Shown here one piece after another: positions 1-30,180 of a DNA stretch of 64,000 nucleotides. Numbering within the stretch: position 1 is the stretch's first letter; each line of letters starts with the position of its first letter. The notes under the pieces are model-generated. The model did not search any database. It had not been told where the DNA came from and saw only the letters and a program-made list of their open reading frames with translations. This DNA is from Candidatus Aminicenantes bacterium (GTDB lineage Bacteria > Acidobacteriota > Aminicenantia > Aminicenantales > JAFGAV01). The position numbers and the translations under genes were made by a program. The DNA lies in assembly GCA_963705895.1 (NCBI GenBank), contig OY970122.1, positions 2,914,774-2,978,773 on the forward strand, given 5' to 3'.

Positions 1-547
1 AATATTGCGAAAGGGCTTCGGGGTCGATATCGCGGGGACAACCGGCCGCGAGCAGGGCTTTGATCTCCGAGGCGAAATAGAGCTTCCGGTCCTTGATGAA
101 ATAGTGCAGGGGCTTGATCCCTAAACGGTCCCTGATCAGCATGAACCGGCGGCGCCCCTTGTCCCAGAGGGCGATGGCGAACATGCCGTTCAGCTTGCGG
201 ACGAAGTCCGGCCCGTGTTCCTCATAGAGATGGACGATGACCTCCGTATCGGACCTGGTGGTGAAGGTGTGGCCTTTGGCCTGAAGCTCTTCTCTCAGGA
301 CGGGGAAATTGTAGATCTCGCCGTTGAAAACGGTCCAGATCGTCCCGTCTTCGTTGGCGATTGGCTGATGGCCGGTGGCGAGGTCGATGATGCTCAGCCG
401 CCGCATGCCCAGCGCGACGCGATCGTCGCAATAATAGCCCTCGTCGTCCGGCCCCCGGTGAACGATGGCCGAGCACATGGCCCGGACCGTCTCCCGGATC
501 TCCGGGGTCAGGCCGTCAAACCCGACGATGCCGCAGATGCCGCACAT
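1..547 (-). CDS. asnB: Asparagine synthetase (glutamine-hydrolysing), N-terminal part; gene continues beyond window start
   Basis: Reverse-strand translation from ATG at 547 reads MCGICGIVGF...RRLSIIDL...HLYEEHG. This is the class-II glutamine amidotransferase N-terminus (Cys2 nucleophile) fused to an AsnB domain. Not in the ORF track because it runs off the window edge. Confidence 0.8.
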   Translation of the reverse strand, partial: MCGICGIVGFDGLTPEIRETVRAMCSAIVHRGPDDEGYYCDDRVALGMRRLSIIDLATGHQPIANEDGTIWTVFNGEIYNFPVLREELQAKGHTFTTRSDTEVIVHLYEEHGPDFVRKLNGMFAIALWDKGRRRFMLIRDRLGIKPLHYFIKDRKLYFASEIKALLAAGCPRDIDPEALSQY

Positions 548-696
548 GATTTATCCCGGAGCATTTTATGACTTTTTATCCCAAAAGGCCACCCGTCGTC
601 CCCGCCCGAGGGCGGATTCCTTGATTTTGCGGCCTTCTTTCAGAATAATAGCCTCGTTTTGGGTCTTCCGCTCGACCCGGGCGGCCGGAAACGCCG

Positions 697-1101
697 ATGA
701 ATGGAGTCAATATCAACGCCGATGATTTACGGTTTAGATCATCCGTCAAGGAGGGCCCCATTCTTGCCCGCGGGGACGGCGTTCCGCCCGGAACACGAAT
801 GAAAGGACCCGTCCGGCGTGCCGGCGTGGTGATTGCCGACCGATTTTATGGTATATCTAGGAACGGCCGGATGACGGCCGAGGCCTTGAAGGCCATCCCA
901 TCCCGGGAATCGGACGGCTCCGCGGAGACGAGGATTCATCCTGGCTTTATGCGGGCGGCCTTCCCCGAACCGGAGCCGATCATCGGCCGTTCCTCCGTCA
1001 ACGCCCGCCGGGAGCAGGAGCTCGAGGCTCTCCTCGACCCGATTTTGAAAGAGGCTGTCCGAGACCTGGATGTTCGGCCTATCAATTTCAGCGATCTGTG
1101 A
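697..1101 (+). CDS. Hypothetical small protein (134 aa) in the 577-bp divergent intergenic region
   Basis: Open frame only; no recognisable motif. May be non-coding promoter DNA. Confidence 0.2.
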   Translation: MNGVNINADDLRFRSSVKEGPILARGDGVPPGTRMKGPVRRAGVVIADRFYGISRNGRMTAEALKAIPSRESDGSAETRIHPGFMRAAFPEPEPIIGRSSVNARREQELEALLDPILKEAVRDLDVRPINFSDL

Positions 1102-1121
1102 GGGCCATGAGGAATGACACC

Positions 1122-2102
1122 ATGAAGAGCACGGAAATCTCGGTCATCGTCCCTTTTTACAATGAAGAGGAAAATGTCGAGGAGCTCTACGAGCGTTTGA
1201 CTCGCGTGCTGTCCAGGCTGAAGCGGACCTATGAACTCATCTTCGTTGACGACGGCAGCACCGACCGGACTCCCGACCTCCTCTTGAAGATCTATAAAAA
1301 GGACCGGCGCGTCCAGGTCATCCGGATGAAGAAGAATTTCGGCCAGACGGCCGGGCTCCAAGCCGGGTTCGACTATGCGGCCGGCGAGATCGTCATCTCC
1401 ATGGACGGCGACCTCCAGCACGACCCGGCCGAGATCCCCGTCTTCCTGGACAAGATCGACGCCGGATACGATATCGTCAGCGGCTGGCGCAAGAAGAGAG
1501 TGGACAATCCGCTCTTGCGCAAGTTTCCCTCCTGGGTGGCCAACCGGATGATGAAGTTCCTTTCCGGGGTCGATCTCCATGATTTCGGGACGACCTTCAA
1601 GGCCTACCGCCGCTCGGCCCTGAAGAACCTCCGCCTGTACGGGGAACTGCACCGCTTTATCCCCGCCCTGATCAGCCGGCAGGGCGTCAGGATCGCCGAG
1701 GTTCCCATCTCGAACATCGTCCGACTGCGGGGCAAGTCCAAGTATGGTCTGTCCCGCGTGCGGCGGGTCATGTTCGACCTTTTGACGGTCAAGTTCATGA
1801 TCAGCTTCGTCGACCGCCCCCTCCAGCTCTTCGGCATGATCGGGTTCATCCTGGGCGGGATCGGCTTCACTATCGCCCTGGTCATCACCATCGGTTTCTA
1901 TTTCTTCGGCTGGCAGATCAGGGAGAACCTGGGCAACCTGCTGTTGAGCGTCTTCCTGATGGTGGTCGGCCTCCAGCTCGTCATGACCGGCCTCCTGGCC
2001 GAGGTCCTGTCCCGCGTTTATTTCGCATCGCACAGGATCAAGATCTATAACGCCGAGGAGCTCCTCTTCCATCGGCCCGTCCCCGAGGAGAAAATTGACT
2101 GA
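1122..2102 (+). CDS. GT2 family polyprenol-phosphate glycosyltransferase (DPM1/ArnC/GtrB-like) with two C-terminal TM helices
   Basis: VIVPFYNEEENV...FVDDGSTD...ISMDGDLQHDP signature (DxD) and a hydrophobic C-terminus. ATG at 1122 with GAGG about 10 nt upstream. Confidence 0.9.
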   Translation: MKSTEISVIVPFYNEEENVEELYERLTRVLSRLKRTYELIFVDDGSTDRTPDLLLKIYKKDRRVQVIRMKKNFGQTAGLQAGFDYAAGEIVISMDGDLQHDPAEIPVFLDKIDAGYDIVSGWRKKRVDNPLLRKFPSWVANRMMKFLSGVDLHDFGTTFKAYRRSALKNLRLYGELHRFIPALISRQGVRIAEVPISNIVRLRGKSKYGLSRVRRVMFDLLTVKFMISFVDRPLQLFGMIGFILGGIGFTIALVITIGFYFFGWQIRENLGNLLLSVFLMVVGLQLVMTGLLAEVLSRVYFASHRIKIYNAEELLFHRPVPEEKID

Positions 2103-4218
2103 AGGTCGCCAGGGACCGCGGTCGCCCGCCGAGGGGTCCCTCGTCCGCCTCCTCGCCTCCGCCGACGGGATGAGCTGGATGTTTGTGGCCCTGCTCGCCG
2201 CCGCCCTTTTCGTCGTCCTCGTTCAGAACCTCGCCTCTCTCTCGATGTGGATGGACGAGTGTTTTCATTATCTCGCCGCCAAAGGGATCCTGGAGCACGG
2301 CTATCCTCTCTTTCCCTCGGGACATATCTACTGGAAAGCGATCCTGTATACCTATGCCCTATCGCTTTTCTCGGCCCTGTTCGGCCTGAACGCTTTCAGC
2401 CTGCGGATCCTCAGCGTCCTGGCCGCGGCGGGCTGTATTCCTGTGCTCTACGCCTTGGCCCGAAAGCTCTTCAACCGCTGGGTCGGGTTGGCGGCCTGCC
2501 TTCTCTTCGCCCTGTCGCCCTGGGTGGCCGAGGACGGCCGGGCGGCCCTGTACTTTGCGCCCCTTCTGCTGTTCGTCCTGGTCTCACTCCTTCTTTTCTA
2601 TAAGGGCTTTTTTGAGGGGAGCCGGCGGAGCAAAACCTGGGCCGTGGTCTTCATCCTGATCACGCCCCTTGTCCATCAGCTGGGCATGGCCGTTTGGTTC
2701 GTCTTCCCGGCATTTCTTTTTGTCCGCGGGCTGAAGCGCTTCTTGAAAAAGGACGTTCTCCTCAGCTTGGGCCTGGTCACGGCGTTCTACGGCCTCATCC
2801 AGGTCCAGGAGTTCTTTTTCTGGAAAGTGGGCTATGTCTACGTTAAGACGGATACCGGCCTGAAGGGCATGATCAAGTATTATTTCTCTGGATTTTCTCT
2901 GGCCTATTTCATGGAGCTGTTCCGGAGCTTTCCGGCCATGAGCCTTCTCGTCCTCGCCGGCGCGTTCTTTTGCCTGGGGATGCGCCTGGCCGGCCGGAGG
3001 GACGCCTCCGAGGCGGGGGGATCGGACCTCGACGGCTGGAGCTTTCTCAACCTTTGTCTGCTCTTCCCCCTTCTCTTCCTCGGGTTCTTCCGGACGCACC
3101 TTCAGCCCCGTTACCTCTATGAGCTCTATGGACTCTTCCTCCTCCTGTTCTGTGCCAGCCTGTTCTACCTGAGCCGAGGGCTGACCGACCTTTTCCTCGC
3201 CCCACTCTTCCGCGGGCTGAGGGACAAAGCGCGGAACGCCGTCGTCCTCGTCCTGTTCGCCGCCCTGCTCCTGGGCTTCACGGAAAACATCGGCTGGGGA
3301 CGTGTCTCGGCCATCGTTCAGAGGCAATACAAGGACCCCGTAGCCACCGACATCATCTACCGCTCGGGCCGTCCGGAGCAGGAAGATCACGAGAACCCGG
3401 GGTTGTACGTCCGGCATTTTCTCAAAGCGGACGATATCGTCATCGCCATCCACGTCGTGTTCGGGTACATCTATGCCGGCCGGGCGGATTACTGGCTCTG
3501 GACCGGAGGGCCGGGCACGTGGGACGCCTGGGAAAAGACGCCGACGGGCTGGCGCGATTTCTATGTCGGCGCGCGCTGGCTCAACAACCTGCCCGACCTG
3601 GAACGGGTCATCAAGGACAACCCCGGCCGGAGGGTTTGGCTCATCGCCTCGAATTCGCTCCTCCGCCGCGATCACATCAGCGACGCCATTCGGGACTTCG
3701 TTCAGGCGAACTCCGATAAGCTGGTGTTCCGCGGCAAGGACGGCCAGTCCGGTGTCTACCTCTGGAATGAAAGCCCGCCGCGGCTGACCGCGGTCCGTCC
3801 CACCCTCGAAGCCGAATGGCTGCCCGTGCGCCGGGCCGGGATCGTCTACCGGGAAGGCCTGTCGAGAGAATGCGGCCTCGCCCTGCATCGCGGGCAGCGG
3901 CAACGCGCCCTCTTTTCTTACGACCTCGGGCCGGCCTGGCCCGCCGGGCGCTACCGTATGACCTGGAGAGCGGCCGCCCCCGTGACTCACTCGACCGAGA
4001 CAGCCCTTGTTTTGAACCTGCTCACGGACAAAGGAGCGAAATTGCGCTCTCTCGCGATCGGGCCGAGCCTGTTCGCGGCCGCCGACCGGCTTCAGGATTT
4101 CACGGTCGATTTCACCCTGCCCACCGAAAGCCGTCTCGTCCTGAAAGGGCTCTATTCCGGCCGGGCGGACCTGCTCCTGGATTTCTGCGATATCACCCGT
4201 CTTGCGGAGGGACCATGA
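2095..4218 (+). CDS. GT-C superfamily glycosyltransferase (PMT_2/ArnT-like, GT39/GT83-type), 707 aa, with a large C-terminal periplasmic domain
   Basis: Multi-TM N-terminal half with the first-loop motif WMDECFHYLAAKGILEHGYPLFPSGHIYW (the DE/acidic loop typical of PMT/ArnT). About 350-aa soluble C-terminal domain. 8-bp overlap with the upstream GT2 gene. Confidence 0.85.
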   Translation: MTEGRQGPRSPAEGSLVRLLASADGMSWMFVALLAAALFVVLVQNLASLSMWMDECFHYLAAKGILEHGYPLFPSGHIYWKAILYTYALSLFSALFGLNAFSLRILSVLAAAGCIPVLYALARKLFNRWVGLAACLLFALSPWVAEDGRAALYFAPLLLFVLVSLLLFYKGFFEGSRRSKTWAVVFILITPLVHQLGMAVWFVFPAFLFVRGLKRFLKKDVLLSLGLVTAFYGLIQVQEFFFWKVGYVYVKTDTGLKGMIKYYFSGFSLAYFMELFRSFPAMSLLVLAGAFFCLGMRLAGRRDASEAGGSDLDGWSFLNLCLLFPLLFLGFFRTHLQPRYLYELYGLFLLLFCASLFYLSRGLTDLFLAPLFRGLRDKARNAVVLVLFAALLLGFTENIGWGRVSAIVQRQYKDPVATDIIYRSGRPEQEDHENPGLYVRHFLKADDIVIAIHVVFGYIYAGRADYWLWTGGPGTWDAWEKTPTGWRDFYVGARWLNNLPDLERVIKDNPGRRVWLIASNSLLRRDHISDAIRDFVQANSDKLVFRGKDGQSGVYLWNESPPRLTAVRPTLEAEWLPVRRAGIVYREGLSRECGLALHRGQRQRALFSYDLGPAWPAGRYRMTWRAAAPVTHSTETALVLNLLTDKGAKLRSLAIGPSLFAAADRLQDFTVDFTLPTESRLVLKGLYSGRADLLLDFCDITRLAEGP

Positions 4219-4991
4219 CCGAAGAGTCGTTCCGGGCCAGCACTCAAAAGAAGCTTCTGGACAAGAACGTCTCGCTCCTGTCCAAGTATTCTCTCCTTTT
4301 CCTGGGACGAAAGAGCCGCCTGGGGCTCCTGAAGTTCGAGCTCATCAACCTTTTCGTGTCCTGGGTGCCCGGCGCACTAGGGCTGGTCCTGCGCCGAATC
4401 TTTTATCCGAGTCTCCTGGGCCGCGTCGGCCGGGACGTCGTCTTCGGTCAGAACATCACCCTCAGACATCCGCACAAGATCCGGATCGGGGACCAGACCG
4501 TGATCGACGACTACGCCGTCCTGGATGCCAAGGGCGATTCGAACGAGGGCATCAGCATCGGCCGGAACGCCTACATTGGCCGAAACACCACCCTGAGCTG
4601 TAAGGAAGGGTCCATCCGCCTTGATGATTACTGCAATGTCTCGGCCAACTGCATGATCCTGTCCGAGACCGAGGTCAGCCTGGGCAAGCATTGCTTCCTG
4701 GCCGGGAACTGCTACCTCGTGGCCGGCGGGAACCATAGCTTCGACGAGCCCGACGTGCCGATCATGTTCCAGCCCTCCTTTTCCAAGGGCGGGATCAAGA
4801 TCGACGACGATTGCTGGCTGGGCGCCGGGGTGGCCGTCCTCGACGGCGTGACGATCGGCAAGGGGAGCGTCGTGGGCGCGGGTTCGGTCGTGACCAAGCC
4901 CCTGCCCGAGTATTCGATCGCCGTGGGGAGCCCCGCCCGCAGGATCCGGGACCGCCGTAACGAAAAGGATCCGAACCGGGTCCGCCCCTAG
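4215..4991 (+). CDS. Left-handed beta-helix (hexapeptide-repeat) acetyltransferase, WcaF/WbbJ-like
   Basis: Repeated [LIV]G-x-x-x-x hexapeptides (IGDQTVIDDYAVLDA, IGRNAYIGRNTTL, CWLGAGVAVLDGVTIGKGSVVGAGSVV) and an N-terminal hydrophobic segment. ATGA overlap with the GT-C stop. Confidence 0.85.
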   Translation: MTEESFRASTQKKLLDKNVSLLSKYSLLFLGRKSRLGLLKFELINLFVSWVPGALGLVLRRIFYPSLLGRVGRDVVFGQNITLRHPHKIRIGDQTVIDDYAVLDAKGDSNEGISIGRNAYIGRNTTLSCKEGSIRLDDYCNVSANCMILSETEVSLGKHCFLAGNCYLVAGGNHSFDEPDVPIMFQPSFSKGGIKIDDDCWLGAGVAVLDGVTIGKGSVVGAGSVVTKPLPEYSIAVGSPARRIRDRRNEKDPNRVRP

Positions 4992-6223
4992 TCCGTCGTC
5001 TTCCGCATTCTCTGTTCCGAAGCCTGGATAACGACCGCTCCGGCCATGCTGCCGATGATGTTGGCCGTCGTTCGGCACATGTCGAGGAGCCGGTCGATGC
5101 CGAGAATGAGGGCGATCCCCTCGAGCGGAATGCCGACCTGCTTCATGATCAGGGCCAGAGTAACGATGGCCGCGGACGGCACGCCGGCCGCGCCGATGGT
5201 GGCCAGGGTGGTCATGACCAGGATGACGGCCTGATCGCCCAGGCTCAGGGGGATGCCGAAGATTTGGGCGATGAACACCGCCGCCACTCCCTGGTAGAGG
5301 GCTGTCCCCGCCTTGATCGTCGTCCCCAGGGGAAGGACGAAGCTCGAATACTCGCGGGTCACGCCCAGGCCCTCCACGCGCTCCATGGCCACGGGCAGCG
5401 TAGCGCTCGAGCTCGAAGTGCTGAAGGCGATGAGGATCGCGTCCTTGGTCGCGCGAAAAAAGCGACGGGGATCGACCTTGGCCAGGACGATGAGGATGAG
5501 GCTCGTGAGGACGACGGCGTACAGGACAAGCCCGGCCAAGACGACGAGAGCGTACCGCAGCAAGCTGAGGAGGACCGACGCTCCGAACTGCCCGATGGCC
5601 GAGGCCACCAAAGCCAGGACGCCGAGCGGGGCGATGGACATGACGATGTGAATCACGCGGAGGATGACGTCGTTCGCTCCCTCGAGGAGGCGAAGCACGG
5701 GCCCGGCCCGCTCAGGGGGGATGAGTGCCAGGGCCACGCCGAAGATCAGGGCCAGAAAAATGACCTGGAGCATGTCGCCCTCGGCCAGGGCCTTGAAGGG
5801 ATTGGCCGGAACGATGTTGACCAGAATGTCGGTCGCCTTGGGTTTGGCTTCCAGGTTCCGCAGCCGGTCCTGGGCGCCGGCCTCGTAGTCTTTGAGAAGC
5901 TCCTGCTTGACGCCGGGGCTGACGCTCCGGCCCGGCTTGAGCAGGTTGACGAGTGCCAGACCCAGAGCGATGGCCGCGACCGTTGTCATCACGAAATAAA
6001 GGATGGTCTTGAGACCGATGCGCCCCAGCTTGCGGACATCGCCCAGGCCGGCCGTGCCCAGCATCAAGGAGATCAGCACCAGGGGGACGACGATCATCAG
6101 GATGAGTCTCAGGAAGATCGTGCCCACGGGCTCGACGAACCGGGCCTTTGGGCCGAGGACAAGGCCGAGAAGGATTCCCAGGGCCAGGGCGATTAGGATC
6201 TGCGTGTGGAGCTTGACCTTCAT
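4988..6223 (-). CDS. Dicarboxylate/amino acid:cation symporter (DAACS, GltP/DctA family)
   Basis: 411-aa polytopic protein with DAACS-typical hairpin motifs (SSSATLP, AGVPSAAIVT). Confidence 0.9.
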   Translation of the reverse strand: MKVKLHTQILIALALGILLGLVLGPKARFVEPVGTIFLRLILMIVVPLVLISLMLGTAGLGDVRKLGRIGLKTILYFVMTTVAAIALGLALVNLLKPGRSVSPGVKQELLKDYEAGAQDRLRNLEAKPKATDILVNIVPANPFKALAEGDMLQVIFLALIFGVALALIPPERAGPVLRLLEGANDVILRVIHIVMSIAPLGVLALVASAIGQFGASVLLSLLRYALVVLAGLVLYAVVLTSLILIVLAKVDPRRFFRATKDAILIAFSTSSSSATLPVAMERVEGLGVTREYSSFVLPLGTTIKAGTALYQGVAAVFIAQIFGIPLSLGDQAVILVMTTLATIGAAGVPSAAIVTLALIMKQVGIPLEGIALILGIDRLLDMCRTTANIIGSMAGAVVIQASEQRMRKTTD

Positions 6224-6232
6224 CGGCGGCTC

Positions 6233-7201
6233 CTAGAGCCAGCCCTTGTCCCTGTACCAAGCGACCGTCTGGGCCATGCCCTGGGCGAAGTCGACCCGAG
6301 GAGAATAGCCGAGCTCCCGGACGGCCTTGCGGATGTCCATGGGTTTGGAGCGGATGAAAAAGGCCAGGCGCGAAGGGGTGAGCGGAGCTTCTTTCTTGAA
6401 GAGGCGGAAGGTCTTGTCCAGGATCGAAGCGGCGGCCGCGGCCGGACCGAGGGGGAGTCGGAGGCGCGGAGGCTTCACGCCCGCGGCTTCGGCGATCAAT
6501 CGAATCATGTCTTTTATGGCCAGGATCTCCGGCCCGGCCAGGTTGTAGACCTCGGCCCTGCGTCCTTTTTCGAGACAGCGCAGGGTTCCCTTGATCAGGT
6601 CGTCGATGTAAACCGGCGACTGGAGGGCGTCGCCCTGTGAGACCATGAGGATCCTTTTGCGGGCCACGGCGCGGATGAGCTTGAGGGTGCGTCTGTCGCC
6701 CGGGCCGTAGACCCAGCCGGGCCGGATGATCCTTACGTCGAGCCCCCGGCGGCCGAAATCCAGGGCGATTCGTTCCCCCTCGAGCTTGCTCCGGTCATAG
6801 GCGTCAAGGGGATGGGGAGGATAGGATTCGTTCACGGGGCGCATCCCGGGCACGTGGCCCAGGACCCCGGCCGAGCTGAAATGAATGACGGTCCGCACCC
6901 GGGCCTCCGAGGCCGCTTTCAGGACGGATTGCGTCCCGCCGGCGTTCGTCGCCTGGAATTCTCCGTTGGAGATGAGCGACGAGCCGAGGGCCGAGGCCAG
7001 GTGGAAGACGACGTCGGTTTTTTTCAAAGATTTCTGAAGACCGGCCCGATCGGACAGGTCCCCGCTCACGGCTTCGAGCCCCGGGGCCGGGGGCAGCGGA
7101 TGCTTGTGGATGATGACCCGGACTTCCCAGCCCCGGCGCAGGAGTTCGTTCAGAAGGTGCGTCCCGATAAAGCCCGAGGCGCCGGTGATGAAAGCGCGCA
7201 T
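6233..7201 (-). CDS. NAD-dependent epimerase/dehydratase (extended SDR)
   Basis: N-terminal GASGFIG Rossmann motif; about 320 aa. Confidence 0.9.
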   Translation of the reverse strand: MRAFITGASGFIGTHLLNELLRRGWEVRVIIHKHPLPPAPGLEAVSGDLSDRAGLQKSLKKTDVVFHLASALGSSLISNGEFQATNAGGTQSVLKAASEARVRTVIHFSSAGVLGHVPGMRPVNESYPPHPLDAYDRSKLEGERIALDFGRRGLDVRIIRPGWVYGPGDRRTLKLIRAVARKRILMVSQGDALQSPVYIDDLIKGTLRCLEKGRRAEVYNLAGPEILAIKDMIRLIAEAAGVKPPRLRLPLGPAAAAASILDKTFRLFKKEAPLTPSRLAFFIRSKPMDIRKAVRELGYSPRVDFAQGMAQTVAWYRDKGWL

Positions 7202-7212
7202 GCAATCCCTCC

Positions 7213-8388
7213 CTAGCGGAACCGATCGTCTTTTCTTGGGACGGCCTTGGCCAGCGCTTCGCCGATCTTGGCCAGATAAGCGGAGTCGGTGTACTCTTTA
7301 TCAGCCTTGGCCTTGGCGGCCTTGGCCTTCTTCTGCGCCCCCCGTTCGAACAGGGCGAAAGACAATCCCTCGGCCATGCTTTCGGCCGTGGGTTCGACGA
7401 GAACGGCGATCTCCTCGTTCACGACCTGGGTGTGAGTCCAGAGGTTCGTGGCCACGAGAGGCTTGCCCGACCTCAGGAAGGAATAGATCTTGAGGGGCGT
7501 GTTCGTCCCGGACAGGCGGGGCGAGACGAGAACGTCCGCCGCGGCGATGTAGAGCGGAACGATGTCCGGGGCGACCCGGCTGACGAAAACCACCCGGCCG
7601 GCGATGCCCAGGGCCTCGCACTGCCGCCGAAGGTCTTTTTCATCGGTCTCCGTCACTCCCACGAGAGCCAGGACGGCTTTGCCCTTCACCCGGGCCAGGC
7701 CTTCGAGGAGAAGCGATATTCCCTGATAGGGCTGGAAGTTGCCTGCGTACAGAACAATCTTCTCGCCGCGCGGGGCAAGCGCCTTGCGGATGCCGTCGAC
7801 GTCCCGGGCCCCTCCTGCGGGAGGTTCGAAATCCAGGAAATTCTCAAGAAACACGGCTTTGCTTCCGAAGCCTTTGGCCTGGACGAGGCGCTCGAGGTCG
7901 CGGCAGATGACGATGACCGAACCCGAACGCCGCAGGACGAAATCCTCTATGAGGATAAAAAGGCCCCTGAGGATCGCCGATCGCGAGAAGTTGAAGTTGT
8001 CGAGTTGTTGGGGCAGGCTGGAATGCATGTCATAGAGATGGGGTATGCGCCAAAGCCTGCCCAGGACCGTGCCCAGGAAACCCGCTTCCTCATGGGAAAA
8101 GATGAGGTCATAGCGATCCCTGAGAAGCTCGCGGCCGGCCTTCAAAAAGAGGAGGATATCCAGGGGCAGTTTCATGAGCGATGGCCCGATCTTGATCGCT
8201 CTTACTCCCGGCGGCCGAGGGATCCGGGCGATGCGCAACCCGGGGAAGCTCCGGTCCTCACCGAGCGGATACGTGACGAGAGTCACGCGGTGTCCAAGCT
8301 CGGACAGGGCTTTGAGGCGAAAATAGATGCTGATGGGCGTGCCCCGGGGCTGGAAAAACGGCTCCGGAGCCAGCATCAGGATGTTCAT
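7213..8388 (-). CDS. GT4 family glycosyltransferase
   Basis: GT-B fold with N-terminal MNILMLAPEPFF...RGTP and a C-terminal E-x7-E region. 4-bp overlap with the upstream GT2. Confidence 0.85.
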   Translation of the reverse strand: MNILMLAPEPFFQPRGTPISIYFRLKALSELGHRVTLVTYPLGEDRSFPGLRIARIPRPPGVRAIKIGPSLMKLPLDILLFLKAGRELLRDRYDLIFSHEEAGFLGTVLGRLWRIPHLYDMHSSLPQQLDNFNFSRSAILRGLFILIEDFVLRRSGSVIVICRDLERLVQAKGFGSKAVFLENFLDFEPPAGGARDVDGIRKALAPRGEKIVLYAGNFQPYQGISLLLEGLARVKGKAVLALVGVTETDEKDLRRQCEALGIAGRVVFVSRVAPDIVPLYIAAADVLVSPRLSGTNTPLKIYSFLRSGKPLVATNLWTHTQVVNEEIAVLVEPTAESMAEGLSFALFERGAQKKAKAAKAKADKEYTDSAYLAKIGEALAKAVPRKDDRFR

Positions 8389-9377
8389 CGAGCAGGGGAG
8401 GGGTTCTCTTTGCCGGGCCGAGCTTCCAGGACCTCCCGGACGAAGTAGGTCGTCTTGCCCGCGGCCTCATGGTAGGCCCGGACCATGATCTCGGCCAGAA
8501 GGCCCAGGGTGATGAACTGGATGCCCAGGATGGTCAGGAGGATGCTCAGGAGAAGCAGGGGCCGGTTGGCCATGCTGATCTTCAGGATCAGGCGCTGGTA
8601 GCCCAGGATGAGGAGCAGGATGCTGCCCAGCCCGCCGCTGATCAGGCCGCACAGGCCGAAGATCTGGAGAGGCTTGGTGGAGTAGCTCAGGAGAAATTTC
8701 ACGGTGAGGATGTCCAGGACGACACGCACCGCGCGGAAGATGGTGTACTTGGACTTGCCGTGGATGCGCGGCCGATGGTTGACCGACACCTCGGCAATGG
8801 TCACGCCGATGTTGCTGGCGATGGCCGGGATGAAGCGGTGAAGCTCGCCGTAGAGCTTGATGCTTTTGACCACCTCGTGGCGGAAGGCCTTGAGCGTGCA
8901 GCCGTAGTCATGAAGGCGAACCCCGGTGATGCGCGAGATCAGCCGGTTGGCCAGGATCGAAGGCAGGCGCCGGGTCAGAAACCTGTCGAAGCGCCTCCTT
9001 CGCCAGCCGGCGACGATATCATACCCTTCGTCGAGCTTGGCCAGAAGCATGGCGAAGTCGGCCGGGTCGTTCTGGAGGTCTGCGTCCAGGGTGATAATGA
9101 CCTCGCCCCGAGAGTAATCGAACCCTGCGGACAAGGCCGCGGTCTGGCCGAAGTTCTTGCGAAGGCGGATGACCTTGACCCTCTTATCCCGCATCTGGAT
9201 CCTTTTCAGGACATCAAAGGAGCCGTCCTGGGAGCCGTCATCGATATAGAGGATCTCATAGGAGTGCTTGAGCTTGGGAAGCTCGGCGGCCAGCTCCTTA
9301 TAAAGGGGCTCCAGGTTCTCGGCCTCGTTAAAAACGGGGATGACGACGGATAATCCCAAACCGTTCTTTTTGTTCAT
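8385..9377 (-). CDS. GT2 family polyprenol-phosphate glycosyltransferase (DPM1/ArnC-like), paralog of the 1122..2102 gene
   Basis: VVIPVFNEAENL...YIDDGSQD...ITLDADLQNDP with two C-terminal TM helices. About 55% identical to the first GT2 over the catalytic domain. Confidence 0.9.
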   Translation of the reverse strand: MNKKNGLGLSVVIPVFNEAENLEPLYKELAAELPKLKHSYEILYIDDGSQDGSFDVLKRIQMRDKRVKVIRLRKNFGQTAALSAGFDYSRGEVIITLDADLQNDPADFAMLLAKLDEGYDIVAGWRRRRFDRFLTRRLPSILANRLISRITGVRLHDYGCTLKAFRHEVVKSIKLYGELHRFIPAIASNIGVTIAEVSVNHRPRIHGKSKYTIFRAVRVVLDILTVKFLLSYSTKPLQIFGLCGLISGGLGSILLLILGYQRLILKISMANRPLLLLSILLTILGIQFITLGLLAEIMVRAYHEAAGKTTYFVREVLEARPGKENPSPAR

Positions 9378-9503
9378 TTTGGCCAATATAGCACAAAGTC
9401 CGGAAGGCGAAAAGACTCAACCCGGCGAGAGCGATCGTTTACGACGAGCACAAGGCCGTTGCGGACTCGCCCCCGATTTTTTCCGAACTTCCGGATCTGA
9501 GGC

Positions 9504-11084
9504 TCAGGCGGGAGTTCTTGGGAGCTTCAGGGCCGGCTTCATCGCCGCCGAAGCCGCAGGATTCGGCGCGATGATGACCGTCACGGACGCCGAATTGTTG
9601 GACGCAACCAGGTCCAACTCGTTCAGGGCGCTCACGCTGGCCGTATTCTTTGCTTTTCCCGTGCTGACCGCCCTGACCGTGATCGTTAGGGTCGCCGCGG
9701 CGCCTTTGGCCAGGGAGCCGATACTCCAGACCCCGCTGCCCGGCTTATAAGTCCCCTGGGACGCGGACGACGAGACATAGCTCAGGCGCGCTGGAAGCCG
9801 GTCGGTGACCTTGAGGCCTGTGGCTGCATCCGGGCCCTTGTTCGTGGCGGTGATGGTGAAATTGAACTCATCGTCCTGCACGGGCGCGAGGTTATCGCTG
9901 GATTTGGAGACATCGATATTCGCCGCCGGTGGATTGAAGGAAAAGATCGTGCCGACACCCTGCGCCCCTCCTAGGTTTGTCATTCCATAGAGCATGGCTC
10001 CGCCGGACACCAGCGACCCCATCGGGGTATCCCCATCCGCTTCGTCGTAGCTGTCAAACGAATGAAGATAAACGGATCCCGTTCCGTCCGCATTGATCTT
10101 GAATATCGTCCCGCAAAGATGGGCGCCGCCGGAGCTGGTCATTCCGTACAACGTAGAACCGTTGAATATCAGTGAACCCTTCGGCAGATTTCCATGGAAG
10201 CCGCCGGCAAAAGAATAAAGTAGGCTGAATCCCGTGCCGTTTGTATTGATCTTAAATATCGTCCCATTGTCGCTCGCGCCTCCCATAAACGTCATTCCAT
10301 ACAAGGCAGAGCTGCTCGAAACCAGGGCGCCCAAGGGGCGGGATCCATCGGACGGGGCGCCGGCGAACGAATGAAGCACGCGGAATCCGGTGCCGTCCGT
10401 GTTGATCTTGAAGATCGTTCCGCCGTCGGAACCGCCGCCGAAGTAAGTCATTCCGTACATGGTCGAGCCACAGAGGACGAGCGATCCGTACGGCTTTTCC
10501 CCGTCGGCCGGGGCGCCGGCGAATGAATGAAGTACTAAGAATCCGGTGCCGTTCGTATCGATCTTAAATACCGTGCCGTCGCTGTTGGCGCCCGAGTCGG
10601 ACGTCATGCCGTATAAAGTCGCTCCGCTCACGATCAGAGAACCGAAAGGGTATCTTCCTTCGCCGGAGACTCCGGAGAAGGAGTGGAGGAGCCCGAATCC
10701 CGTGCCGTCCGTGTTGATCTTGAATATCGTCCCGGCGTCGGAACTGCCGCCAAGGCAAGTCATCCCGTACAGGGTCGAGCCTCTGAGGACGAGTGATCCG
10801 AGGGGAGTTTTTCCGTCGGAGGAGCCCCCGGCGAACGAATGGAGCAGGCGGAATCCCGTGCCGTCCGTATTGACCCGGAATATTGCGCCCATAGAGCTCC
10901 CTCCGCCTTTCGCGGTCATGCCGCAAAGGGTGGAACCGTCCAAAATGAGCGAGTCACAAGGATATGACCCGTCCAATGAAGCGCCGGCAAACGAATGGAG
11001 CAGCCTGAAATGCGCCGAAAAAAGCGGGGCGGCGAGGACGACCCCTAGGATCAAAGCCAGGCCGATCTTCCTTTTGTTGATCAT
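9504..11084 (-). CDS. Secreted tandem-repeat surface protein: signal peptide + 7x approx. 50-aa GloVer-like repeats + C-terminal DUF11 (conserved repeat domain)
   Basis: Start ATG at 11084 preceded by AGGGAGGGG. Signal peptide MINKRKIGLALILGVVLAAPLFSA. Seven repeats of the form F.LLHSFAG...DG..P.GSLV..GSTLYGMT..GG...GTIFKINTDGTG. C-terminal ...TITATNKGPDAATGLKVTD...NTASVSA.N..D.V.SNNSASV resembles DUF11. Confidence 0.85.
   Translation of the reverse strand: MINKRKIGLALILGVVLAAPLFSAHFRLLHSFAGASLDGSYPCDSLILDGSTLCGMTAKGGGSSMGAIFRVNTDGTGFRLLHSFAGGSSDGKTPLGSLVLRGSTLYGMTCLGGSSDAGTIFKINTDGTGFGLLHSFSGVSGEGRYPFGSLIVSGATLYGMTSDSGANSDGTVFKIDTNGTGFLVLHSFAGAPADGEKPYGSLVLCGSTMYGMTYFGGGSDGGTIFKINTDGTGFRVLHSFAGAPSDGSRPLGALVSSSSALYGMTFMGGASDNGTIFKINTNGTGFSLLYSFAGGFHGNLPKGSLIFNGSTLYGMTSSGGAHLCGTIFKINADGTGSVYLHSFDSYDEADGDTPMGSLVSGGAMLYGMTNLGGAQGVGTIFSFNPPAANIDVSKSSDNLAPVQDDEFNFTITATNKGPDAATGLKVTDRLPARLSYVSSSASQGTYKPGSGVWSIGSLAKGAAATLTITVRAVSTGKAKNTASVSALNELDLVASNNSASVTVIIAPNPAASAAMKPALKLPRTPA
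9915..11009 (-). repeat. Seven in-frame tandem approx. 150-bp coding repeats (GloVer-like) inside the surface-protein gene
   Basis: Periodicity read directly from the translated product. Confidence 0.7.
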
Positions 11085-11199
11085 TTTTTCCCCTCCCTGT
11101 GGATCAAGGGGAGCACGGTTCTCCACGTCGTCAAGAGCGGATTCACTTTCCCCTACAGAAAATAGTTGCAAAATTCGGGTCCTGTGTCAAGGAGCATGA

Positions 11200-14048: not shown

Positions 14049-15518
14049 ATGACACCATCCGCTCCGCGACCGCCATCGAAAGAGAAACGACAGTCCCTCA
14101 TTTCCGCGAGTCCATTCCGGTCGTCCGTCCCGAAGCTCATCGTGAGCGCCTGCCTATTCGCCGCGCTCATCATGGCTGCCGGCTCGCTCTTCTTCGGCTC
14201 CGCCATGGAATCGCCGGTCATCACTTCCTACCGGGGCGCGCCCTGCGTCGAGGGCGAGATCCTGGTAAAATTCGAGCCCGCGGCCAGCTTGTCCGAGGTC
14301 CGCGGTCTCATGCGCCTCCTGCGGAGCCAGGACCTCGAAGTGATCCCGGGCATCGGCGTCCACCGGCTGAAGCTCCCCGGCGGGGGCGGGCTCGCGGCCA
14401 GCCTCGACGCCCTGCGCCGTGACCCGCGCGTGGAGTATGCGGAACCCGATTATTGCCTGCACCTGGCTTCCACGGTTCCGGATGATCCCATGTTCAGCTA
14501 TCAGTGGGCGCTCCGAAACACCGGCCAGGCCATCGCCCCCCCGGACTTCCATCTTCCGAGCGGCACGTCCGGAGCGGACATCAAGGCCTGTGAGGCCTGG
14601 GACATCTTCCAGGGCAGTTCGGCGACGCTCGTCGGCGTCGTCGACACCGGCGTAGACCTGACGCATCCCGAACTCATCAACCGCATCGAATCCCCGGGAA
14701 TCGACTTTCCGAACAATGACCAATCGGCCCAGGACGATCATGGCCATGGAACGCACGTGTCCGGCATCATCGCCGGAGAGGCGAACAACGGCCTCGGGAT
14801 CTCGGGCGTCAACTGGAACGTCCGGATACTTCCGGCCAAGGTCTTCAACCGAAACGCCGTCGGCCAGACTTCTTGGGTGGCCAACGGCATCATCTATGTC
14901 GCGTCGCACGGGGCGCGCGTCATCAACATGAGCTTGGGCGGCCGCGATGTCGTCGTCAATCAAACCCTGGAGTCGGCCATCAAGTTCGCCTATGACCGGG
15001 ACGTGGTCCTCGTCGCCGCGGCGGGCAACAACGGAACCGCCGGGGTCTGGTATCCCGCCGCCTACGAGCCCTATGTCATCGCCGTCGCGGCCACCGACCA
15101 GAACGACGGGCGCGTCAGCCTGGAATCGACGAACGGACTGTTCGGCTCGAATTTCGGGCCGGAAGTGGATGTGGGCGCGCCGGGAATCGACATTCTCAGC
15201 ACCTGGCCCATCGGTCTCTGGCAGCGCGGGCATCCGGGCTTCCCGGGGTATGTTTACCAATACGGGACATCCCAGGCCACGGCGTATGTCTCCGGCCTGG
15301 CCGCCCTCATCATTTCTTTCCGTCCCGACCTGCACAATCGGGAAGTCATGGACATCATCCGCTGGTCCGCCGACGACGTCAACGCGGCGACGCTCCCCGG
15401 CCGCGACGATTATCTGGGCTATGGCCGGATCAATGCCGCCAGGGCACTGACCCTGGCCGCCCTCTGGGATATTCTTAGGGGATGGATTTTTCCGCTTCGC
15501 CTCGTGGCCGGGTTCTAG
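14049..15518 (+). CDS. Secreted subtilisin-like serine protease (peptidase S8) with N-terminal I9 propeptide
   Basis: Catalytic triad motifs VGVVDTGVD, HGHGTHVSG, GTSQATAYVSG. N-terminal hydrophobic segment. Confidence 0.9.
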   Translation: MTPSAPRPPSKEKRQSLISASPFRSSVPKLIVSACLFAALIMAAGSLFFGSAMESPVITSYRGAPCVEGEILVKFEPAASLSEVRGLMRLLRSQDLEVIPGIGVHRLKLPGGGGLAASLDALRRDPRVEYAEPDYCLHLASTVPDDPMFSYQWALRNTGQAIAPPDFHLPSGTSGADIKACEAWDIFQGSSATLVGVVDTGVDLTHPELINRIESPGIDFPNNDQSAQDDHGHGTHVSGIIAGEANNGLGISGVNWNVRILPAKVFNRNAVGQTSWVANGIIYVASHGARVINMSLGGRDVVVNQTLESAIKFAYDRDVVLVAAAGNNGTAGVWYPAAYEPYVIAVAATDQNDGRVSLESTNGLFGSNFGPEVDVGAPGIDILSTWPIGLWQRGHPGFPGYVYQYGTSQATAYVSGLAALIISFRPDLHNREVMDIIRWSADDVNAATLPGRDDYLGYGRINAARALTLAALWDILRGWIFPLRLVAGF

Positions 15519-15665
15519 GCCGGAAGACCCTGACCTTTATTGGCCTCGGAGCTGAGCGCCCGCCTCTTTGCCCCAATGAACCAGGCGATTATTCAACTGC
15601 GGACGGAACTCTGCTGAGATGAAAGAGAACGAATGACTGTCGTGTCCCTGGAGGGCGAGCCTTCT

Positions 15666-16523
15666 TTAAAGATTGACCTTGAACCCGAGCGTGGCGGCCA
15701 CCCCCGTGAAATCAAAATGGCCCCGGCGGGCGTTCGAGATATCCGGATTCTTGGGCTCATAGGCCTGGAATGATGTCTGGGGGTAGGATTTTTCGCCCGC
15801 GACAAACTCGTAGTACCATAAGTACTGGCCCGGCACGCTCACGGAATAGGGCGATCCGAAAAATGACCCGCTGACATTTCCGTCGCCCTTGATGTTGTTT
15901 GCCCGTGCGTATCGGCCCCGCACGTCGAGGACGACCGCCAGTCGACGGCCGAGCGAGACTTCCACTCCCAATCCGCCTTGGAATCCGAGGACGGCCTTGT
16001 CGGCCGTGAAAAGGGAATCGAAGTTCCAGTCGAACTGCGTGGAGCTATAAAGATTCTCATAGCTGAAGTGGCAGAGATAAACGCCGGCGCCGGCGCCGAG
16101 GTTCAGCCTGACCGGACCCAGCGGAAAAAAATAATGAAGGTTGAGGGTCACGGGGACCGCGGAGAACCGCGGGTGGACGGTGAGAGTGTCATGGAATGTC
16201 GCCGCGGGGATCCTCCAATCATATTCGATGGTGCTCTTTTCGCTCGTCGAGAGATACCCGACGCCGATTCCCACGCTGAAACGGCGCGTGATGTCATAAC
16301 CGGCTTCGAATTGGAGTTCTAGGGCCCGGTCGAGCTTGGCCAGAACTCCGCTGACGTTCGTATAGAGGACGCGGAACAGGTCGTTCGAGCCCGGCACGCT
16401 TCGGTTATAGTCGCCTCCATTGATCGTGGCGACACCGCCTCCAGCCTTCAGCCAAAAGCTGCCGGGAAAGGCCGTGAGGGAACACGCCAGGCACAGGCTC
16501 GTCGTCAGTAGAAGTTTTCTCAT
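15666..16523 (-). CDS. Putative outer-membrane beta-barrel protein with signal peptide
   Basis: Signal MRKLLLTTSLCLACSLTAF followed by alternating amphipathic beta-strand pattern rich in G/Y/S. Confidence 0.55.
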   Translation of the reverse strand: MRKLLLTTSLCLACSLTAFPGSFWLKAGGGVATINGGDYNRSVPGSNDLFRVLYTNVSGVLAKLDRALELQFEAGYDITRRFSVGIGVGYLSTSEKSTIEYDWRIPAATFHDTLTVHPRFSAVPVTLNLHYFFPLGPVRLNLGAGAGVYLCHFSYENLYSSTQFDWNFDSLFTADKAVLGFQGGLGVEVSLGRRLAVVLDVRGRYARANNIKGDGNVSGSFFGSPYSVSVPGQYLWYYEFVAGEKSYPQTSFQAYEPKNPDISNARRGHFDFTGVAATLGFKVNL

Positions 16524-16675
16524 GAACTCTTCCTTTCCGGAACGAAATTTAACAGCGCGGGTTTATTTTGTCAACAAAGGGACGGAAGAGACCGCCGCCC
16601 GGCTTGCTTTTTCTTAGGAAAAATGACAAAATTTTCCTTCGAACTTGACCCGATCAGAATATCCGGGTTGAAAAC

Positions 16676-17092
16676 ATGCTGAACATTGATGCGACCTTTC
16701 TTGTCGTTTTCGTCATCATCTGGATCCTCGTCTTCGTGCTGAATAAGGTGTTTTTCAATCCCATGAAGAGGATCCGTGATGTGCGTCGGGGCGAGCTCGA
16801 CCGGAATCAAGGCACGGCCCGCCGGTCTCTCGAAGAATATGATCGAACTCTGGAGCGCCTGGAACAATCCCTTCGGGAAGCCCGGTCACAAGCGGACCGG
16901 ACGCGGGAGTCCCTGAGCGCCGAAGCCCTGAAGGAAAAGGCCAAGCTCTTGGAGGACCTTGGCGCCGAGTACCGGCGCAACGTGGAAAAAGCCAAGGAGG
17001 ACCTCCGGAGCGAACTGCAGGGCCTCAAGCGGGACATGGACTCTCAAGTGGAATCCCTCGCTCGAAAGATCGAGGAAAGGCTGGTCTCTTGA
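16676..17092 (+). CDS. F-type ATP synthase subunit b' (second b-type stator subunit)
   Basis: Single N-terminal TM then a long charged coiled-coil (EYDRTLERLEQSLREARSQADR...). Confidence 0.8.
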   Translation: MLNIDATFLVVFVIIWILVFVLNKVFFNPMKRIRDVRRGELDRNQGTARRSLEEYDRTLERLEQSLREARSQADRTRESLSAEALKEKAKLLEDLGAEYRRNVEKAKEDLRSELQGLKRDMDSQVESLARKIEERLVS

Positions 17093-17709
17093 GGCTCCCC
17101 AAGCGCGCGTTGGCCCTTCTCGCGGTTCTGATTATTTTCATGGCGTCTGGGTTCGTCCAGGCCGCGGAGAAAGGCCCGGCCCGGCACTCCTCCTCCGCTG
17201 ATTTCCTGGGCAAGGTCATCAATTTCGTCCTCCTTTTCGGCACGCTGGGCTACGTCCTTCGCAAGCCCCTCGGCAAATTCCTGGCGGATCGCGTCGCGCT
17301 CGTTCGGTCCGGCCTGAAAAGCGCCGAGGAGACGGCCCTCCAGGCCCAGGCCAAACTGCGCTCGATCGAGGACCGGACGGGAACTCTCGAGTCCGAGGTC
17401 GAGGCCATGGAGACGAAGGCTGAGACCGACGGCCGGACGGAGATGGACCGCATCATGCAGGCGGCGCGCCGGGAAGCCGCTCGGCTCCAGGAGTTCTCCG
17501 AGCAGGAGATCGAAGCCCAGGTGAGGGCAGGGGTCCGCCAGCTCAAGGAGTACGCCGCGGACAAAGCCCTGGCCCTGGCCCTTGACCGCGTGCGCGCCAA
17601 GCTCACGCCCGACGCCCAAAGTCGGCTCGTTGACGCGTCCATCGAAAAATTGGCTGAGGTCCATGAAAAAAGAGATTCTCGTCCAGCGCTACGGCCACGG
17701 ACTCATTGA
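17089..17709 (+). CDS. atpF: F-type ATP synthase subunit b
   Basis: N-terminal membrane anchor then an A/E/R-rich helical stalk. ATGA overlap with the b' gene. Confidence 0.8.
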   Translation: MRLPKRALALLAVLIIFMASGFVQAAEKGPARHSSSADFLGKVINFVLLFGTLGYVLRKPLGKFLADRVALVRSGLKSAEETALQAQAKLRSIEDRTGTLESEVEAMETKAETDGRTEMDRIMQAARREAARLQEFSEQEIEAQVRAGVRQLKEYAADKALALALDRVRAKLTPDAQSRLVDASIEKLAEVHEKRDSRPALRPRTH

Positions 17710-18205
17710 CGCCCTCCGCGGCGAAGCGGAGTTCCAGGCCGTCCTCGGGGAAATCAAGGACATGTCCGGGCTTTTTTTCACACCCGGAGCGCTCGAGGAC
17801 TTTCTGGCCAGCCCTTTCGTGGTCAAGTCCAAAAAGGCCCGGGCCCTGAGGGACATCTTGTCCCGGGCGGCGCTCAACCCCAAGACGACGCGCTTCTTGC
17901 TCCTCCTCCTGGACAAGGGCCGGCTGGAGCTTTTGCCGGAGATCGTCGAGATCCTGCCCGAGCTTTGGAACGAGAGCCGCGGCGTGCTCACGGCCCGGGT
18001 CGCCTCGGCCGTGCCCCTGAGCGACGCCCAGCGCCGACGCCTGACCGAGCGGCTGGAGCAGCTCGAGGGCCGGCCGGTGTCCCTGACTTGCGCCATCGAC
18101 CCGACGCTCGTCGGCGGCCTGACGGTAACCGTGAACCACCAGGTCTATGACATTTCGATCAAAGGCCGGGCGGAAAAGCTCATGGAAATCATCACCGAAG
18201 GATAA
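17663..18205 (+). CDS. atpH: F-type ATP synthase subunit delta (OSCP)
   Basis: MKKEILVQRYGHGLIDAL...LTCAIDPTLVGGLTVTVNHQVYDISIKGR. ATG at 17663 lies 47 nt inside the end of the b gene. Confidence 0.8.
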   Translation: MKKEILVQRYGHGLIDALRGEAEFQAVLGEIKDMSGLFFTPGALEDFLASPFVVKSKKARALRDILSRAALNPKTTRFLLLLLDKGRLELLPEIVEILPELWNESRGVLTARVASAVPLSDAQRRRLTERLEQLEGRPVSLTCAIDPTLVGGLTVTVNHQVYDISIKGRAEKLMEIITEG

Positions 18206-18211
18206 AGGCCC

Positions 18212-19732
<1,521 letters not shown>

Positions 19733-19745
19733 GCCGAGGAACCCC

Positions 19746-23877: not shown

Positions 23878-23879
23878 CC

Positions 23880-30040: not shown

Positions 30041-30180
30041 GGTCGTTTGTTTTCACGTCGGTCCTTAGGAAGCGAGGAATGATGACTTCCTCCATCCCCT
30101 GCGCTATTGCATCACGAGGAAAGGGCGGCCAAAGCTGTTCGAAAGTCCTTCGAGTCTTGTTTCCCGGATTCTAAAAAAGT

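Follow-up and report, generated by a model that had tools for sequence, protein, structure and literature searches.

The locus and its counterparts in related genomes

The first 11 kb of a 64-kb stretch of a Candidatus Aminicenantes genome (contig OY970122.1; hereafter the window, meaning the whole stretch, to which all coordinates refer unless another contig is named) have a G+C content of ~61% and hold a group of glycosyltransferase genes and their neighbours. The operon on the plus strand is interpreted here as a glycosylation cassette that acts through a carrier lipid, is conserved across the Aminicenantes and modifies an envelope glycan, most likely the lipid A or core of lipopolysaccharide (LPS), a reading to which we assign a probability of about 0.6. 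The features of the region are as follows.

2-547, minus strand: asnB-type glutamine amidotransferase, N-terminal 182 amino acids (GATase_7 E 3e-49; TIGR01536 E 4e-69)
621-649, plus strand: sigma-70-like promoter match TTGATT-17-AATAAT, upstream of the YdjC remnant open reading frame (ORF)
697-1101, plus strand: remnant of a YdjC/HpnK-family deacetylase, 134 codons (last third only of the Pfam YdjC profile)
1098-2102, plus strand: GT2a, polyprenyl-phosphate glycosyltransferase of the ArnC/GtrB/DPMS type (PF00535 E 2e-37)
2095-4218, plus strand: GT-C glycosyltransferase, 707 amino acids (PMT_2 and PMT matches)
4215-4991, plus strand: hexapeptide-repeat acetyltransferase of the WcaF/WbbJ type with a left-handed beta-helix, 258 amino acids (Hexapep E 1e-15)
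4988-6223, minus strand: sodium:dicarboxylate symporter (SDF) of the GltP/DctA type, 411 amino acids (PF00375 E 4e-121)
6233-7201, minus strand: extended short-chain dehydrogenase/reductase (SDR), 'NAD-dependent epimerase/dehydratase', 322 amino acids (PF01370 E 2e-40)
7213-8388, minus strand: GT4 (GT-B fold) glycosyltransferase, 391 amino acids (Glyco_trans_1_4, Glycos_transf_1, Glyco_trans_4_4)
8385-9386, minus strand: GT2b, polyprenyl-phosphate glycosyltransferase and paralogue of GT2a (PF00535)
9504-11171, minus strand: secreted GloVer-repeat/DUF11 protein, adjoining GT2b

These genes fall into three transcription units, namely asnB on the minus strand, the YdjC remnant with GT2a, GT-C and acetyltransferase on the plus strand (697-4991), and GT2b, GT4 and SDR followed by the symporter on the minus strand (9386-4988). 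GT2a and GT-C overlap by 8 nt, and overlaps of 4 nt join the GT-C stop to the acetyltransferase start and the GT2b stop to the GT4 start; an alternative start of GT2a at the ATG at 1122 is possible. A preliminary description of this DNA had named seven of the genes (asnB, GT2a, GT-C, acetyltransferase, SDR, GT4 and GT2b), all of which are present, but had combined them into a single locus and had overlooked both the YdjC remnant and the symporter. It was right about the type of the asnB product and missed that the gene is divergent from the cassette, on the minus strand, and incomplete, with a coding sequence that runs past the window start.

GT2a and GT2b share 47% identity, and each consists of a GT-A domain with the motifs DDGS.D and D(G/A)DLQ.DP followed by C-terminal membrane helices. 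Residues 12-327 of both align, membrane helices included, with the ArnC structures 9hwj, 9bhc and 8vxh (E 8e-51 for GT2a, 3.5e-60 for GT2b), and both also match GtrB sll0501 (5ekp; E ~1e-41, with 8e-41 for GT2a) and the dolichol-phosphate mannose synthase of Pyrococcus. Because these alignments to solved enzymes cover the full length, the two proteins are, by homology, polyprenyl-phosphate glycosyltransferases, and GT2a presumably makes the donor that the GT-C uses. Their full-length identity to E. coli ArnC is 33% (GT2a) and 40% (GT2b), and scores of 194 and 221 bits on the ArnC equivalog NF007986, which has a cut-off of 529 bits, place both outside the ArnC group. GT2a reaches 180 bits on the PgfS model, a match to the PpgS model stands at 42 bits, and among the NCBIfam models GT2a has no HpnI match.

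The GT-C scores above the Pfam cut-offs for PMT_2 (43.9 bits, cut-off 26.1) and for PMT (PF02366; 29.9 bits, cut-off 22.7). An AlphaFold model from an alignment of 38 homologues (predicted local distance difference test, pLDDT, 88.4; predicted template-modelling score, pTM, 0.88) contains ~11 transmembrane helices in residues 23-395 and a soluble C-terminal part of ~310 residues (~396-707). Residues D54-E55 of a WMDE motif are invariant in the 38 homologues and are placed by the model just after the first helix, where the first outer loop begins; since the short loops 301-308 and 369-376 are basic, the C-terminal 310 residues would lie on the same side of the membrane as this motif. They comprise an alpha/beta domain (~400-560) with an invariant Trp-rich loop, D465-E480 (DYWLWxGGPGTWDAWE), and a beta-sandwich (~580-707) that resembles carbohydrate-binding modules (CBMs) and is the least conserved section of the protein. 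A Foldseek search of the PDB ranked ArnT first (5f15, E 5e-9, target TM-score 0.58) and after it AglB/STT3, Emb, ALG9, Pmt4 and PglB, with Pmt4 in 27th and Pmt1-Pmt2 in 37th place; the beta-sandwich alone matches CBM4-2, CBM6, CBM61 and domain III of Cry toxins (E ~3e-4). The profile score, the acidic loop-1 motif and the fold all place the enzyme in the GT-C superfamily, Pfam PMT_2 (GT39/GT83-like). It matches neither the NCBIfam ArnT model nor the MIR domain, and at the level of sequence it does not appear to be an orthologue of ArnT.

Much of what had been said of this protein before holds up. The profile searches that the preliminary description proposed pass both the PMT_2 and the PMT threshold, and the acidic WMDE motif is real and lies in the first outer loop. 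A periplasmic domain is present at ~310 rather than the 350 amino acids claimed, and the label "unusually large" fits only beside ArnT (about 550 amino acids), as 707 amino acids is an ordinary size for GT-Cs of the PMT, STT3 or PglB type. Membership of an ArnT orthologue group had been named as the result that would count against the description, and none emerged from NCBIfam, PDB sequences or hhalign. The proposal of two distinct periplasmic decorations loses its footing: the 64-kb window contains just one GT-C, since BLAST, a family hidden Markov model, tblastn with a 791-residue paralogue and a hydropathy scan found no second one there, and the GT2b operon comes without a GT-C of its own.

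The GT-C family is so far limited to the Aminicenantes. Its full-length homologues, with identities of 44-72% and of 98% within the species, were without exception from Candidatus Aminicenantes or Acidobacteriota metagenome bins. When residues 400-707 served as query in an exhaustive search, 234 of 1.84 billion cluster representatives matched, and about ten of these 234 carry the complete two-domain C-terminal module; the alpha/beta subdomain alone also terminates other PMT_2-type GT-Cs. A few of these other GT-Cs are fused to a CE4 deacetylase, a GDSL/SGNH hydrolase or an N-terminal GT2 (P0188, P0159, P0256).

Gene order was compared in 51 Aminicenantes genome loci and several metagenome contigs. 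The conserved arrangement has asnB on one strand and YdjC, GT2a, GT-C and acetyltransferase on the other, the latter order being present in about 30 loci with GT-C identities of 45-72%. Of the 42 loci with enough upstream sequence, 25 have GT2a no more than 300 bp ahead of the GT-C and 30 have YdjC within 1.5 kb of it, and one or other of the two occurs anywhere in the locus in 34; together with the overlap of GT2a and GT-C in the window, this upholds the pairing of a lipid-phosphate sugar synthase with a GT-C that had been noted at the outset. In 33 of 46 loci, no more than 300 bp separate the GT-C from an acetyltransferase gene downstream of it. Even at three rearranged loci (L047, L053 and L055) the GT-C remains beside YdjC, GT2a, asnB and a methyltransferase gene. 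Upstream of asnB the relatives carry the methyltransferase, a divergent GT9 gene of the heptosyltransferase family, a small GT2 and then ksgA. The cassette occupies a fixed site among housekeeping genes (ksgA, accD, folC) and has a normal GC content, and therefore fits a core envelope trait better than a mobile serotype island.

The relatives also provide the full-length partners of genes that are cut short in the window. Their YdjC proteins score 219-221 bits on the HpnK model, just under its cut-off of 232.6. The asnB orthologue of locus L001 reaches 646 bits on TIGR03108, and the full-length asnB products look most like the amidotransferase of the XrtA/PEP-CTERM system. The acetyltransferase of the window gives 100 bits on the WcaF-family model NF007797 (cut-off 192). 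A gene for a B12-binding radical S-adenosylmethionine (SAM) enzyme precedes YdjC in 12 of 28 syntenic loci (about 40%); its best named matches are HpnJ (186-190 bits, cut-off 577.6) and then the diol dehydratase AprD4. It adjoins YdjC-GT2 at L058 5759-7138 and L057 17539-18921 and is absent from the window, L001 and L002. Several seemingly lone GT-C paralogues lie a few kb from a separate YdjC-GT2-radical SAM-GT-C cassette whose GT-C has 791 residues. At L057 this second cassette (15093-20112; PMT/PMT_2 matches) is ~4 kb from a 703-residue paralogue, and the same arrangement occurs in L029, L035, L037, L039 and L040.

A deletion in the deacetylase gene

The remnant that opens the plus-strand operon covers only positions 179-265 of the 266 in the Pfam YdjC profile. 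Compared with the 282-residue orthologues it retains roughly 20 codons at the start (MxxxxINADD...) and 95 at the end, and the 168 codons between them, including both conserved histidines, are replaced by 20 unrelated ones, a net in-frame loss of 148 codons. At the DNA level the junctions at window 756/817 correspond to L001 8218/8723, so that 504 bp have been replaced by 60 bp. Window 817-1101 matches L001 8723-9007 and window 620-756 matches L001 8080-8218, a segment that takes in the promoter-like site, the start codon and the beginning of the coding sequence; since the latter segment aligns to the region upstream of and into YdjC, the 5′ end of the operon survived the deletion. The lost segment includes H60 and H126 (L001 protein numbering), which we take to be metal-binding histidines by comparison with the TTHB029 structure. 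The remnant is, on its sequence, a pseudogene, and the deacetylase is dead in the window species.

The same deletion occurs in L004 and L005, contigs that come from other samples and represent a sister strain, with 96.8% identity to the window over 12.3 kb. An assembly artefact was considered as the cause of the deletion and rejected on this ground. A further contig of 8.3 kb (L061; Logan ERR10755944) is 100% identical to window 166-8400. In L004 and L005 codon 71 of the remnant has changed from GAA to TAA, and 4.0% of the remnant bases differ from the window. The stop codon upset the codon alignment and makes the ratio of non-synonymous to synonymous rates (dN/dS) of 1.29 for the remnant unreliable, so differences were listed codon by codon instead. 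This listing gives 8 amino-acid-changing differences in 134 codons, a non-synonymous rate of roughly 0.027, compared with ~0.008-0.0095 in the intact cassette genes. Between the two strains dN/dS is 0.22 for GT2a, 0.135 for GT-C, 0 for the acetyltransferase (6 synonymous and 0 non-synonymous differences) and 0.065 for GT2b. The deletion is real and predates the divergence of the two strains, since when the other cassette genes have remained under purifying selection.

Proposed pathway, rival readings and neighbouring genes

The deacetylase is the most informative clue to the chemistry of the cassette, in that it points to an N-acetyl-hexosamine donor and a pathway of the Lgm/NaxD type. On the cytoplasmic face GT2a, an enzyme typed by homology, would load undecaprenyl phosphate with a sugar taken from a nucleotide-sugar donor, and because the deacetylase is conserved in the relatives this sugar is most likely an N-acetyl-hexosamine. 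The conserved gene order suggests that in these relatives the HpnK/NaxD-like YdjC removes the N-acetyl group on the carrier to leave a free amine, and that in about 40% of them the HpnJ/AprD4-like B12 radical SAM enzyme remodels the amino sugar further. A flippase step, for which the locus encodes no protein, would then move the lipid-linked sugar across the membrane, where the ArnT-fold GT-C would pass it, via the invariant D54-E55 loop, to a periplasmic acceptor. As the acceptor, a conserved glycan of the envelope, most likely LPS in its lipid A or core region, is favoured above a protein or a variable O-antigen, given that the fold is ArnT-like, that a CBM-like module is present, that GT9, asnB and methyltransferase genes are neighbours and that the native genomic position is fixed. 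The hexapeptide acetyltransferase probably adds an O-acetyl group; its retention in spite of the loss of the deacetylase argues that a free amine is not needed and makes O-acetylation more likely than re-N-acylation. Since the deacetylase is dead and the other cassette genes remain under selection, the sugar transferred in the window species probably keeps its N-acetyl group and is thus neutral instead of cationic. A deacetylase gene at another place in the genome may, on the other hand, stand in for the lost one.

Several observations weigh against this assignment. No flippase of the GtrA or ArnE/F type is found at the locus, and we infer the donor sugar solely from the deacetylase, which is dead in the window species. 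A search of PDB sequences with the GT-C, up to E 10, returned nothing meaningful with either the single sequence or a 38-sequence profile, and hhalign against E. coli ArnT gave a non-significant E of 0.25, in which WMDE happens to stand opposite the ArnT WQPDE. An E of ~3e-4 makes the CBM-like matches modest, and some GT9 enzymes are heptosyltransferases that act on proteins. To our knowledge the Aminicenantes are an uncultured phylum.

The main rival places the acceptor in a polymer: the GT-C would add a branch sugar to an exported O-antigen or capsule in the manner of Gtr/Gml systems, and the acetyltransferase would O-acetylate the same polymer. At 22750-25166 on the plus strand the window encodes a Wzm-like six-helix permease and then a Wzt ATPase that includes the carbohydrate-binding domain Wzt_C, a pair that indicates a polysaccharide export system dependent on an ATP-binding cassette transporter, about 13 kb from the glycosylation cassette. 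This export pair at 22.8-25.2 kb speaks for side-branching, as do the match of both GT2s to GtrB (sll0501, E ~1e-41), the WcaF/WbbJ type of the acetyltransferase, which is typical of polysaccharide loci, and a beta-sandwich that suggests polysaccharide binding, as in Emb enzymes, and is the least conserved part of the GT-C. The locus nevertheless has no GtrA-type flippase, is native and syntenic across the class rather than variable or phage-borne, and is flanked by a GT9-family gene and asnB instead of O-unit genes; ArnT, moreover, is the best fold match. Side-branching is thus a serious contender that we hold to be unlikely. Modification of Ser/Thr residues of surface proteins such as the GloVer/DUF11 protein, as by Ppm1/Pmt or the Pgf system of Streptococcus mutans, would account for the PF02366 score of the GT-C (29.9 bits against 22.7), its loop-1 Asp-Glu pair, which PMTs share, the 180 bits of GT2a on PgfS and the adjacent gene for a secreted repeat protein. 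That gene, which the preliminary description had offered as a possible target, is a species-specific insertion that lies beside the cassette in no other relative, its position being empty of GloVer in relatives that keep the cassette. Neither the missing MIR domain nor the rank of Pmt structures, far below ArnT, STT3 and Emb, fits such a role, and Pmt and Pgf systems offer no equivalent of a deacetylase and a radical SAM enzyme that act on the sugar; protein O-glycosylation accordingly seems quite improbable.

Two further explanations concern the product and the state of the cassette. If GT2, YdjC and radical SAM enzyme built an amino-sugar or cyclitol head group on a hopanoid or other membrane lipid rather than on a carrier, as HpnI, HpnK and HpnJ do, the near-threshold HpnK scores of the relatives' YdjC (219-221 against 232.6) and the best named matches of the radical SAM enzyme (HpnJ, 186-190 bits) and the SDR (HpnA, 160 bits) would be explained. 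The HpnJ and HpnA scores are far under their cut-offs (578 and 368), GT2a is a full-length ArnC/GtrB homologue without an HpnI match, the Hpn pathway has no role for a GT-C, squalene/hopene genes (shc, hpnH) occur neither in the window nor in the related loci, and the window lacks the radical SAM gene, all of which leaves this origin scarcely credible. Decay of the whole cassette in the window species, with the loss of the deacetylase as the first step of pseudogenisation, would fit the internal deletion of YdjC and the nonsense codon in the sister strain. It is very improbable given that GT2a, GT-C and acetyltransferase are intact, with dN/dS of 0.22, 0.135 and 0 between two strains that both bear the deletion, that their non-synonymous rate of ~0.008-0.0095 is well below the roughly 0.027 of the remnant, and that the promoter-like region is kept.

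The GT2b-GT4-SDR genes constitute a separate operon that would make another lipid-linked sugar or a glycolipid. The operon is also kept near the cassette in relatives, at varying distances and with varying genes between. Its SDR is closest to the hopanoid-associated HpnA among named families (TIGR03466, 160 bits, cut-off 368), and the top 120 homologues of its GT4 are all of Aminicenantes type with at least 58% identity, a search that placed the operon in no known system. The symporter between the two glycosylation operons is probably a passenger, because other relatives have different genes there or carry the symporter on the opposite strand. The GloVer gene is inserted between GT2b and a response-regulator gene. 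Between the two strains it shows a synonymous divergence (dS) of 0.25, 87% amino acid identity and 5 gap positions, compared with a dS of 0.03-0.08 in its neighbours, and its local GC is 0.564 against about 0.62; the divergence and GC suggest recombination or diversifying change. The repeat protein was rejected as a glycosylation target, its gene not being conserved beside the cassette.

Elsewhere in the window, GC dips to 0.535-0.547 between 26000 and 30000 (about 0.61 elsewhere), an interval with short ORFs only, among them a five-helix membrane ORF at 29401-30111 on the minus strand. Two adjacent genes of the alkaline-phosphatase superfamily (type I phosphodiesterase; 32482-35262, minus strand) stand beside a gene for an FtsX-type permease (30876-32231). 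A run of acyl-CoA metabolism genes at 41811-62689, unrelated to the cassette, encodes CoA transferases, thiolases, acyl-CoA dehydrogenases, a carboxyltransferase with biotin carboxylase, and methylmalonyl-CoA mutase with MeaB.

Significance and relation to known systems

Sediments and the subsurface harbour abundant Aminicenantes, and we know of nothing established about their envelope chemistry; a literature search found no paper on Aminicenantes LPS. Conservation of the cassette throughout the class beside genes of the LPS-core type predicts a conserved decoration of the outer membrane of the hexosamine type, transferred by a distinct GT-C family with an added domain that resembles carbohydrate-binding modules. 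As a natural experiment, loss of the deacetylase with retention of the remainder reveals the steps that can be dispensed with, and it may signal a shift in surface charge. A more far-reaching proposal, which we consider speculative and rather improbable, is that the ancestral cassette, composed of HpnJ-like radical SAM enzyme, HpnK-like deacetylase, ArnC-like GT2, ArnT-fold GT-C and acetyltransferase, produced an amino sugar linked to undecaprenyl phosphate that was remodelled by radical chemistry (deoxygenation or ring rearrangement) at the carrier stage and then moved to LPS, and that the window species, in which the radical SAM gene is missing and the deacetylase dead, represents a stepwise reduction in which the decoration went from cationic to neutral. 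We know of no organism in which a radical-remodelled carrier-lipid amino sugar on LPS has been described.

Among known systems, protein O-mannosyltransferases (PMT, GT39) are marked by a PMT domain, an Asp-Glu motif in loop 1 and a luminal MIR domain; the window GT-C scores 29.9 bits on PF02366 and has the D54-E55 pair, the Pfam search gave no MIR domain, and Pmt4 and Pmt1-Pmt2 ranked 27th and 37th by fold. In mycobacteria PpgS and Rv3779 act in a pathway in which polyprenyl-phosphate-N-acetylgalactosamine is made and deacetylated and a GT-C transfers galactosamine to arabinogalactan, and the Emb arabinosyltransferases carry C-terminal carbohydrate-binding modules. The 42-bit match to the PpgS model and the Emb fold matches of the GT-C recall these enzymes; the sequence similarity is distant only, and the Aminicenantes envelope is diderm. 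The GtrA/GtrB/GtrC and Klebsiella GmlABC systems that add side branches to O-antigen consist of a GtrA flippase, GtrB and a serotype-specific GtrC and are usually prophage-borne. In them a GtrB-type synthase likewise feeds a polytopic periplasmic transferase that decorates a finished glycan, whereas the present locus has no small GtrA-like membrane ORF, its transferase is PMT_2/ArnT-like, and it is chromosomal, core and syntenic.

The pathway of HpnI, HpnK and HpnJ that makes the cyclitol ether of bacteriohopanetetrol has been described, and in it HpnK deacetylates a lipid-linked N-acetylglucosamine (GlcNAc), GlcNAc-bacteriohopanetetrol (PMC13459092, PMC5462960). The relatives' YdjC is nearest to HpnK and their radical SAM enzyme nearest to HpnJ, enzymes that act on lipid-linked GlcNAc or glucosamine (GlcN). 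Unlike that pathway, the cassette has a GT2a that is not HpnI-like, includes a GT-C and has no hopanoid genes nearby, and the similarity to HpnJ is weak (186 against 578 bits), which leaves it outside the Hpn group. The arnBCADTEF operon of E. coli and Salmonella, which places 4-amino-4-deoxy-L-arabinose (L-Ara4N) on lipid A, shares the pairing of synthase and GT-C and de-N-acylation at the lipid-linked stage; GT2b and GT2a are 40% and 33% identical to ArnC of E. coli, and in fold the GT-C comes closest to ArnT. The operon differs in that arnA, arnB, arnD (CE4 type), arnE and arnF are absent from the locus and arn neighbours from the window and the related loci, that both GT2s score below the ArnC cut-off, and that the deacylase belongs to the YdjC family and not to the polysaccharide-deacetylase family.

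The logic of the cassette, likened by enzyme families, appears to match most closely the Bordetella Lgm and Francisella NaxD hexosamine pathways rather than the canonical arn operon, and more loosely the ArnC/ArnD/ArnT scheme. LgmA, LgmB and LgmC, and FlmF2 and FlmK beside NaxD, supply an ArnC-like GT2, a YdjC-family deacetylase and a GT-C. In Bordetella lgmA, lgmB and lgmC are required for GlcN on lipid A (PMC4993483), and NaxD, of the YdjC superfamily, deacetylates undecaprenyl-phosphate-N-acetylgalactosamine before its transfer to lipid A (PMC11279074). Lgm, and NaxD with FlmF2/FlmK (Francisella/Acinetobacter), place a hexosamine on a lipid A phosphate, and the Aminicenantes relatives share their combination of GT2, YdjC deacetylase and GT-C, with a full-length YdjC of 282 residues beside GT2a and GT-C in about 30 loci; in the window YdjC is a pseudogene short of 148 codons. 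The Aminicenantes GT-C is ~150 residues longer than ArnT-type enzymes, ends in an additional CBM-like beta-sandwich and is not detectably similar to ArnT in sequence, and the cassette adds a hexapeptide acetyltransferase and, in many relatives, the B12 radical SAM enzyme. The radical SAM enzyme with which some relatives pair the GT-C is without counterpart in the known Arn, Lgm and NaxD pathways. For the study of lipid A modification, the cassette would extend a familiar scheme rather than overturn it.

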